Part shown: one piece after another, positions 31,701-34,700 of the stretch | Position numbering within the stretch: position 1 is the first letter of the stretch | Layout: each line of letters begins with the position of its first letter | Virus record (IMG/VR): IMGVR_UViG_2917408641_000002 | Coordinates: 1 to 44,997 of that record | Source of the DNA: a virus | Taxonomy: Duplodnaviria; Heunggongvirae; Uroviricota; Caudoviricetes | Length of the DNA stretch: 44,997 nt | Reading direction: 5' to 3' (one strand) | Program-made: the position numbers

Positions 31701-34700
31701 GAGCAGCAGACCCTTTTATCTCACGGCGTGGCGACGGCTTATGTGGAAGGCGGCACGTTGCGGATCCAGCGTTCCGTAACCACCTACAAAAAGAATGCAT
31801 ATGGCGTGGCAGACAACAGCTATCTGGACAGTGAAACACTGCATACCAGCGCATACGTTCTTCGCAAACTGAAATCGGTCATCACAAGCAAGTACGGACG
31901 CCACAAGCTGGCAAATGATGGTACCCGTTTTGGTCCGGGGCAGGCGATTGTTACTCCTGCCGTTATCAAAGGGGAGCTTCTGGCGACATATCGTCAGATG
32001 GAGCGTGCCGGTATTGTGGAAAATTACGATCTGTTTAAACAGTATCTGACAGTTGAGCGTGATGCGGATAACCCGAACCGACTGAACACGCTGTTCCCGC
32101 CGGATTATGTTAACCAGTTACGTGTCTTTGCGGTGGTTAACCAGTTCCGTCTCCAGTATTCAGAGGAGTCAGCATAATGGCAAAGATCGCCGGAACCTGT
32201 TTTTTTAAAGTGGATGGTCAGCAGTTATCGCTGACAGGTGGCATTGAAGTGCCGATGAACACCAATGTCCGGGATGATGTTGTCGGCATGGCAGGGGATG
32301 TGGATTACAAGGAGACCTGGCGGTCACCTTACGTTAAAGGCACGTTTAAAGTGCCCAAAAATTTTCCGGTCGACAAAATTACCACCTCAGATCAGATGAC
32401 GATTACTGCCGAGCTGGCAAACGGCATGGTGTATGTGCTTTCGGCGGCATGGCTGCACGGCGAAGCAAACCATAATGCCGAAGAAGGTACGGCAGATCTT
32501 GAATTCCACGGCGAAGAGGGAGGATATCAGTAATGAGCGTGACAGAAATTGTTTTAAAAAAACCGGTGACAGCGCATAACGAAATGCTGCATGTGCTGGA
32601 GTTGCGCGAGCCCACGTATGACGAAATCGAGGCGCTGGGTTTTCCTTTCATTATTTCCGGTGAAGGCAGTATTAAACTGGACAGCCAGGTGGCACTGAAA
32701 TATATCCCGTTGCTGGCGGGGATCCCGCGTTCATCGGCGGCGCAGATGGCAAAACTGGATATTTTTAAGACCAGCATGCAGATCCTGCGTTTTTTTACCC
32801 AGTCGGAGACGGGAAGCACCTCCGGAAACGACTCTACAATGTTGCCTGGTTCTGGAAACTGAATCCACTGGAGCTGCGACGGGTGGCTATTTCGCAGTTT
32901 ACAGAACTGGAAGCCGAGGCCGTCCGCATTAACGAGGAGATGAAGCATGGCTGACAGTTTTCAGCTGAAGGCGATCATCACTGCCGTGGATAAGGTGTCG
33001 GCACCGCTGAAAGGGATGCAGCGCCAGCTGAAAGGCTTTAAAAAGGAGTTTGCCAGCCTGTCTCTGGGCGCAGCGGGTGCCGGAACCGCAGTACTGGGGG
33101 CGCTGGCGCTCCCGGTCAAATCTGCCATTGCCCTTGAATCAAAAATGGCGGATGTCCGGAAAGTGGTGGATGGTCTGGATACGCCGGAAGCGTTTAAGGC
33201 AATGACGGAACAGGTGCGCGACCTGTCAACAGAACTGCCTATGTCGGCGGAAGGTATCGCCGAAATCGTGGCGGCGGGTGGTCAGGCTGGCATAGCCCGT
33301 GACGAGCTGATGCAGTTTACTGACGACGCCGTGAAGATGGGGGTGGCCTTTGACACCACGGCAGAAGAATCCGGTCAGATGATGGCACAGTGGCGCACTG
33401 CCTTTAAACTGACACAGGGAGAGGTGGCAGGACTTGCGGACAAGATTAACTATCTTGGTAATACCGGTCCTGCAAGTGCGAAAAAGATTTCTGATGTTGT
33501 GACCCGTATTGGCCCTTTAGGCGGTGTTGCGGGTGTGGCCTCCGGAGAGATTGCCGCAATGGGGGCAACCATTGCCGGAATGGGGGGGGGAATCAGAAAT
33601 TGCGGCGACGGGGATAAAGAATTTTATGCTGTCGCTGACAGCGGGGAATTCTGCCACCAAATCGCAGAAAAAAGCGCTTCGCCTGTTGCGCATTGACCCG
33701 AAAAAACTGGCGGCGGATATGCAGAAAGATGCCCGTGGGGCCATGCTGCACGTACTGGATTCTCTGGCGAAAGTGCCGAAAGAAAAACAGGCTGCTGTGC
33801 TGAATGCGCTGTTCGGGAAGGAATCTCTGGGAGCCATCGCACCGCTGCTCACGAATCTGGATTTGTTGCGAACCAATTTTAATCGTGTGGCGGATGCGCA
33901 GCAGTATGGCGGCTCAATGCAGAAAGAATATGCCGCCCGTGCCGCGACGACGGAAAACCAGTTGTTGCTGCTGCAGAACCAGATCAATGCGATTTCTTCC
34001 ACGCTGGGGGAAACCTTCCTGCCTTCACTCAATGAAGGCATAAAAGAGATGAAGCCTTTTCTGGAAGAAGTGCGCACGTTTGTCAGAGAAAATCCTGAGG
34101 TCGTAAAAACCATCGCGAAAACTGGTGCGGCATTACTGACGATGGGCGTGGCGATTGGCACATTGACACGCATAACAAAAATCATGGGTATCGTGATGAA
34201 TATGACGCCGGCAAAGGGATTAATTGCGCTTCTCGTCGGTGGTGCATATCTCATAATTGATAACTGGGAAACCGTTGGGCCGGTTATTAAAAATGTCTGG
34301 GAAGTCATTGATGGCACCGCCCAGGCTATGGGGGGATGGGAAACGATCCTTAAAGCTATCGCCATTTTTATGGCGACAAAGTGGGTCACCGATGTCACTA
34401 AATCAATCAGCATTGTGACGAAGGATATGCGCACACTCGGCAAGGTCACTGCCGCTACCGGATTGTTTGGTAAAGGCGGGGGCGTTATCGGAAAAGCCGG
34501 TGTATATGGGATGCTGGCTTCTATGATGTGGGAGCCCGTCGAAAATGCACTTGAATCAATTCTGCCTGAGGGCGATGTTAACTGGGCCAAGGATCATGGC
34601 ATATATCTGGCCTCTGACTGGACCCCGTTTTTTAATCGAAAAAATTATGAGGAATACCAGGCATCCCTTAATCAGCCGCGTCAGTACAAACCGAATGTTC

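Follow-up and report, generated by a model that had tools for sequence, protein, structure and literature searches.

Is the tape measure protein (TMP) gene of the phiP27-like prophage in the type strain of Escherichia marmotae truly broken, or is its interruption at a run of nine G residues an error of sequencing, a reversible switch, or a site at which the reading frame is changed during expression? The question is raised by the 44,997-nt virus record IMGVR_UViG_2917408641_000002 (hereafter the window, numbered from its first nucleotide), which is 100% identical over 21.4 kb and 20.1 kb to CP025979.1, the chromosome of E. marmotae HT073016. The prophage spans the window from an integrase gene (1–1314, minus strand) to an ipaH-like gene with a NEL E3-ligase domain (41731–44034, minus strand), and adjoins yecD/aspS. 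A preliminary description of the window had placed a frameshift in the G run and had left undecided whether it was a sequencing error or a genuine change, through phase variation or pseudogenisation. As detailed below, the run of nine G's (G9) is very probably a genuine and recent replication-slippage mutation, which made the TMP gene of this phiP27-like, ipaH-carrying prophage a pseudogene.

The TMP gene is split at a run of nine G's

The run consists of exactly nine G's, at positions 33582–33590 (plus strand), where the sequence reads GCCGGAAT GGGGGGGGG AATCAG, and is the longest homopolymer of the 44,997-nt window. Its length alone is not statistically unusual: when the window was shuffled 100 times with its dinucleotides preserved, 31 of the shuffled sequences contained at least one G9 or C9 run. 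Because such runs are common by chance, any significance of this one can come only from its position and from the comparison with relatives. As to position, the run lies where the two parts of the TMP gene overlap, an upstream open reading frame (ORF) in frame 1 (32947–33696, plus strand; 249 aa) and an open frame in frame 2 that continues to 34861. In the 249-aa product, the first 214 residues are native, apart from a V214G substitution; the remaining 35 are out of frame, and the ORF ends at a TGA stop codon (33694–33696). The 3′ part (33591–34861, plus strand), in the +1 frame, contains the native codons 215–637 and is wholly open; gene callers assign to it a 380-aa ORF starting at the ATG at 33719. 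Removal of one G in silico produced an ORF of 1914 nt that codes for 637 aa, with no internal stop codons.

The 249-aa fragment matches Pfam PF10145 (PhageMin_Tail; phage minor tail/tape measure) over residues 88–215 (2.2e-28; 99.9 bits, with a cut-off of 33.2), and the match ends at about position 130 of the 201 positions of the profile, which is the point at which the frame is lost. The protein encoded by the repaired gene is equal in length to the intact TMP of E. coli STEC379 (WP_112015833.1; 637 aa), from which it differs at four residues (S193G, V214G, I361L and S415I); the nucleotide identity of the gene to the STEC379 copy is 98.9%. The relatives are annotated as 'phage tail tape measure protein' and are intact, with 637 aa (649 aa in phiP27). 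They include L47 of phiP27 (NC_003356.1) and its E. coli orthologues, such as WP_112015833.1, which share with the window the order sheath, tube, chaperone, TMP, DNA-circularisation protein and baseplate genes. At the site of the run the L47 orthologues carry GGGGGTGG and are intact, whereas the window gene is broken after codon 214; phiP27 itself has a divergent C-terminal third. Both the split of a TMP gene by a +1-nt frameshift inside the G9 run and the perfect joining of its halves with one G fewer, as put forward in the preliminary description, are thus borne out by the PF10145 match, the L47 orthology and the 637-aa repair.

In place of the single uninterrupted frame of ruler length (about 637 aa) required of a functional member, the window has separate ORFs of 249 aa and 380 aa (or 445 aa for the latter). 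The window TMP gene is a pseudogene of the PF10145/phiP27 L47 family, not a functional member of it. CP025979.1 has no protein on record for the corresponding interval, as would be expected of a gene annotated as a pseudogene. Translation would exit the native frame after residue 214, add 35 unrelated residues and stop; the part lost, two thirds of the ruler protein on its C-terminal side, comprises the hydrophobic centre and the conserved C-terminus. Tape measure proteins are required to start the polymerisation of the tail tube and to set its length. Given this requirement, a normal tail should not form.

Three assemblies attributed to HT073016 carry G9

Long G runs are error-prone on several sequencing platforms, and HT073016 could in truth have eight G's (G8) and an intact gene bearing V214G, the ninth G having been miscalled in a difficult homopolymer. 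A miscall would be consistent with the G8 state of the three closest relatives (see below), with the completely undamaged frame downstream of the run, and with the presence of a second frameshift, an A6 to A5 change in the baseplate hub gene, likewise in a homopolymer. However, G9 is reproduced in three assemblies attributed to the strain, which were made in different ways and are all 100% identical over 13–21 kb. For the CP025979 chromosome of the type strain, PacBio RSII reads were assembled de novo with HGAP; Illumina HiSeq2000 sequencing was also carried out for seven strains (PMC6650469). G9 is also found in GCA_000807695.3, a scaffolded draft of the short-read type, which shows no real mismatches to the window over 32 kb, the sole differences being a 10-N scaffold gap, and whose contig breaks at repeats (IS66 and the tail fibre repeats). 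Lastly, G9 is present in the Logan k-mer assembly of SRR6001584, identical to the window over 13.5 kb; a perfect 20-kb contig from the k-mer assembly of this run must stem from accurate short reads. The agreement of assemblies produced in such different ways makes a sequencing error unlikely. Moreover, the same prophage has two nonsense substitutions, a 77–78-nt deletion and the insertion of an insertion sequence (IS), none of which is possible as a homopolymer miscall; the nonsense substitutions and the deletion thus further support genuine decay. The idea of an error-ridden assembly was rejected, as only two coding indels were found in 18.4 kb in comparison with the relatives and the assemblies are in perfect agreement. 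We therefore consider it very unlikely that HT073016 is G8 at this site, or that G9 arose as an artefact of sequencing or assembly.

Some points weigh against a genuine pseudogene. The support for G9 was read from assemblies, not from raw reads, and the assignment of SRR6001584 and of the JNBP01 draft to HT073016 as Illumina data is an inference from the methods of the paper, sequence identity and assembly behaviour, not from run metadata. The data sets are not fully independent if the same short reads were used to correct the PacBio assembly, and heterogeneity between G8 and G9 within a culture is possible. In addition, the loss of tail function in the HT073016 prophage is presumed from the sequence. 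With these points taken into account, genuine pseudogenisation is favoured among the possibilities that the preliminary description had listed, whereas error is unlikely and evolved phase variation is not supported (see below).

Frameshifts in tail genes were also seen elsewhere in the data, in relatives whose RefSeq genomes are labelled 'complete'. In E. coli STEC384 (L004; NZ_CP091029.1), four consecutive tail genes (sheath, tube, chaperone and TMP) are frameshifted, and ETEC1734 (L006) has A7 in place of A8 at the hub/gp45 junction. These changes look like homopolymer assembly errors, unlike the concordant HT073016 data.

Allele series at the G run

The site was collected from more than 40 related loci, drawn from E. 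coli genomes, phiP27, 18 IMG/VR contigs, five metagenome contigs, and NCBI and Logan contigs. About 38 of the 42 distinct loci carry GGGGGTGG (ATG GGG GTG GAA; Met-Gly-Val-Glu) in an intact gene, without a long run. G8 (ATG GGG GGG GAA, in frame, V214G) is found in three sources, SRR30592947 (L042; 99.92% identical to the window over 13.5 kb), GCA_012294685.1 (L053; 99.49% over 14.4 kb) and SRR6001585 (L044; 99.94%), the TMP gene being intact (637 aa) in L042 and L053. G9, and with it the frameshift, is confined to HT073016, so that the comparison of run length among related prophages, which the preliminary description had proposed, gave a clear answer. A pattern of the site with a variable gap had no match in the species-representative genome collection.

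Since both the GGGGGTGG and the G8 alleles are observed in relatives, the series points directly to an origin of the run in two steps. A T to G substitution next to a run of five G's would have turned the ancestral 8-nt GGGGGTGG (Gly-Val; G5-T-G2) into an in-frame G8, causing V214G; this state, the putative immediate ancestor of G9, would have persisted in the close relatives with an intact gene. In the lineage of HT073016, the slippage-prone G8 run would then have been lengthened by one G. What was observed directly are the states of the sequence, the series of alleles and the concordance of the sequencing data sets; for the order and the mechanism of the mutations, a run-extending substitution and then slippage, we infer from the well-known mutational behaviour of homopolymers.

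The G9 frameshift is recent, as there is no substitution relative to L042 downstream of the run and the shifted frame is still wholly open. When the changes in positions 24681–38177 (13.5 kb) were polarised with outgroups in the comparison with L042, those private to HT073016 were only one substitution (28086; I210S in the capsid protein) and the two frameshifting homopolymer indels. The share of inactivating changes among them is unusually high, perhaps because the runs are highly mutable or because loss of tail production was selected for. L044, an E. marmotae sister data set, has in addition to G8 a separate 1-nt deletion at the equivalent of window position 33927, where GAAAGAATATG is changed to GAAAGATATG; its TMP gene is split into ORFs of 364 and 270 aa, and its hub gene is intact. 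Thus, the TMP gene was lost at least twice independently in this group, through G9 in HT073016 and through the deletion in L044.

A G9 run reverts to G8 at an elevated rate, and G8 and G9 distinguish prophages that are more than 99.9% identical; both points are in line with a contingency locus, in which the tract would be a hypermutable and reversible switch that turns the production of the TMP, and of tails, on (G8) or off (G9). Homopolymers of at least 6 nt in phage genes have been proposed to be contingency loci (bioRxiv 10.1101/2025.10.21.683753). The poly-G tracts of Campylobacter phages, and the proposed loci T2 agt and T4 rIIA (bioRxiv 10.1101/2025.10.21.683753), resemble the window run in that a mononucleotide run in a coding sequence differs by one base in length between close relatives, which toggles the frame. 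Unlike those loci, however, the window run is not conserved, about 38 of the 42 distinct loci having GGGGGTGG, and looks like an accident that befell one sublineage recently; moreover, the gene that contains it is an essential structural one, in a prophage that is already defective. A single length change was seen, with G8 in three sources and G9 in one strain. Nor would reversion to G8 restore the tails of HT073016, in view of the breaks in the hub and fibre genes. There is no evidence of recurrent or reversible switching, and no apparent selective benefit from switching off the ruler protein. A contingency locus is accordingly a highly improbable explanation, and phase variation as an evolved feature, which the preliminary description had considered, is not supported, the run being no trait of the family.

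The tail module and its probable programmed frameshift

The TMP gene lies directly downstream of the tube and chaperone genes, in a module with the order sheath (30681–32177), tube (32177–32533), chaperone (32533–32862), TMP (from 32947), DNA-circularisation protein and Mu-like baseplate genes, matched in annotated relatives. The tail region is 96–99% identical to that of the Stx2e phage phiP27 and of about 50 E. coli prophages. Immediately upstream of the TMP gene is an intact tail assembly chaperone gene (plus strand; PF10109, Phage_TAC_7). It contains a T TTT TTT heptamer (T7; 32790–32796, plus strand), which, from the known G/GT-type arrangement, is likely to be the canonical site of programmed −1 frameshifting. 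After the heptamer, the −1 frame is open for 52 codons, to a TGA at 32952–32954, and overlaps the TMP start; the heptamer is identical in all nine of the relatives checked. This T7 site in the chaperone gene, separate from the G9 site, is thus the likely place of the programmed frameshift that is conserved in the tail module. The G/GT frameshift of lambda, E/E+E′ of P2 and that of Mu gp41, all −1 shifts in chaperone genes, are like the G9 case in belonging to the tail module and in involving a slippery, homopolymer-like stretch close to the TMP gene. A slippery site of the G/GT type is expected to be conserved and to lie in the chaperone gene; in contrast, G9 is found in one strain only, within the TMP gene itself, and would require a shift of +1. 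G9 as the conserved tail-chaperone frameshift was therefore rejected, the T7 heptamer being 790 nt upstream and in a different gene.

In enterobacteria, transcription is known to slip at long homopolymers, an example being mxiE of Shigella. Full-length TMP could likewise still be made at a low level from the G9 allele, through slippage of RNA polymerase or a +1 shift of the ribosome on GGG GGG GGA. From a reading of the sequence, a Gly-tRNA on GGG could shift by +1 within the run and still pair without mismatch, the zero frame has an AGA codon two codons further on, and a moderately stable hairpin (z = −2.4) is predicted about 30 nt downstream of the run. However, the site is unique to one strain and hence cannot be an evolved recoding signal, and the conserved programmed frameshift of the module is that of the chaperone T7 site. 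Any by-pass of G9 would be incidental and inefficient, and would be useless given the other tail lesions. Recoding at this site thus appears exceedingly improbable. The downstream hairpin was also evaluated as a stimulator of frameshifting and was rejected, since the same sequence occurs in relatives without the run.

No evidence was found for evolved phase variation or programmed recoding at G9. It can be speculated, with very little probability on our part, that the new G8/G9 tract is a de novo contingency locus in the phiP27-like prophages of E. marmotae, allowing high-frequency switching of the tail, or that slippage, either of the ribosome by +1 or in transcription, by-passes it in part. 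If so, populations would hedge between a transmissible phage and a locked-in element that carries ipaH.

Other lesions of the prophage and its cargo

The HT073016 prophage carries at least six lesions, the TMP frameshift among them. The gene for the baseplate hub (Mu gp44/GpP-like; 36265–37319, plus strand) is a pseudogene through a 1-nt deletion, A6 to A5, at 36417–36421, which leaves ORFs of 113 and 293 aa in comparison with 351 aa in the relatives; among close relatives, the deletion is private to HT073016. The tail fibre gene (39923–41131, plus strand) has a premature stop codon at 40160–40162 (GAA to TAA; E80*), and L053, the nearest relative with the same type of fibre, has GAA at codon 80 and an intact product of 402 aa. 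The TMP, hub and fibre lesions are all absent from the closest relatives. Contrary to what the preliminary description had supposed, the G9 site does not decide whether the tail module is intact, as the hub and fibre genes are broken as well. The head and lysis genes and most tail genes, in a gene-by-gene comparison with intact relatives, are intact at 96–100% amino acid identity.

Outside the tail module, a gene of the replication region (10989–11897; 302 aa) is split into 195 and 76 aa by a nonsense codon, CAG to TAG, at 11574–11576, due to a single C to T change. SRR6001586, whose Logan assembly has five single-nucleotide polymorphisms in 10 kb relative to the window, shows the same split, and this lesion is therefore older than the TMP frameshift. 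At 14428–15387, a deletion of 77–78 nt between two TTGTGCGTG repeats has fused the genes for RusA and the antiterminator Q, separate in the relatives (119 and 229 aa), into one ORF of 319 aa; the fusion is in frame and joins RusA without its last 19 residues to Q without its first nine. An IS66-family element with tnpA, tnpB and tnpC (17313–19928, minus strand) occupies the cargo slot that contains stx2e in phiP27. Just upstream of this slot are the four tRNA genes of the phage (Met, Lys, Thr and Gly; 16458–16767).

The ipaH-like gene (41731–44034, minus strand) codes for a type III secretion system effector with a NEL E3-ligase domain and leucine-rich repeats (LRRs). The full ORF has 767 aa and begins with an LRR_TTSS N-terminal domain, and tandem repeats of 60, 120 and 240 nt at 43073–43677 expand its LRR region. 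The gene is only 542 aa long in the public collection, in comparison with the 767 aa of the full ORF, and the recorded start may be too far downstream. Exact look-ups of the 767-aa ORF and of the 311-aa fragment of the tail fibre found neither on record. With the TMP lesion being one of at least six, the prophage of HT073016 is in decay and probably non-infectious, still with its ipaH-like cargo gene.

Discussion

The interruption of the TMP gene of the HT073016 prophage is a genuine but ordinary slippage pseudogene, and events of this kind are already well known in Escherichia and Shigella prophages. The homopolymer-slippage pseudogenes of defective (domesticated) prophages in these genera have in common with the window a single-base indel in a run, several more inactivating lesions and an inserted IS within one element, and a retained cargo gene, here that of the ipaH-like E3 ligase. 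Nothing essential differs; what the window adds is that the G8 intermediate and the pre-run GGGGGTGG are both seen in relatives. It thereby provides a worked example of how a slippage-prone tract is born from a substitution adjacent to a short run (G5-T-G2 to G8) and then undergoes a frameshift, all three states being in public data. The finding is of value chiefly to annotation and to the assessment of this prophage, and it opens no new question. For E. marmotae, it means that the phiP27-like element at yecD/aspS of the type strain is to be treated as defective, with damage to genes for the tail, baseplate, fibre, replication and antitermination, and, since the prophage is defective, that the ipaH-like effector gene is probably not spread by infection but fixed in the chromosome.

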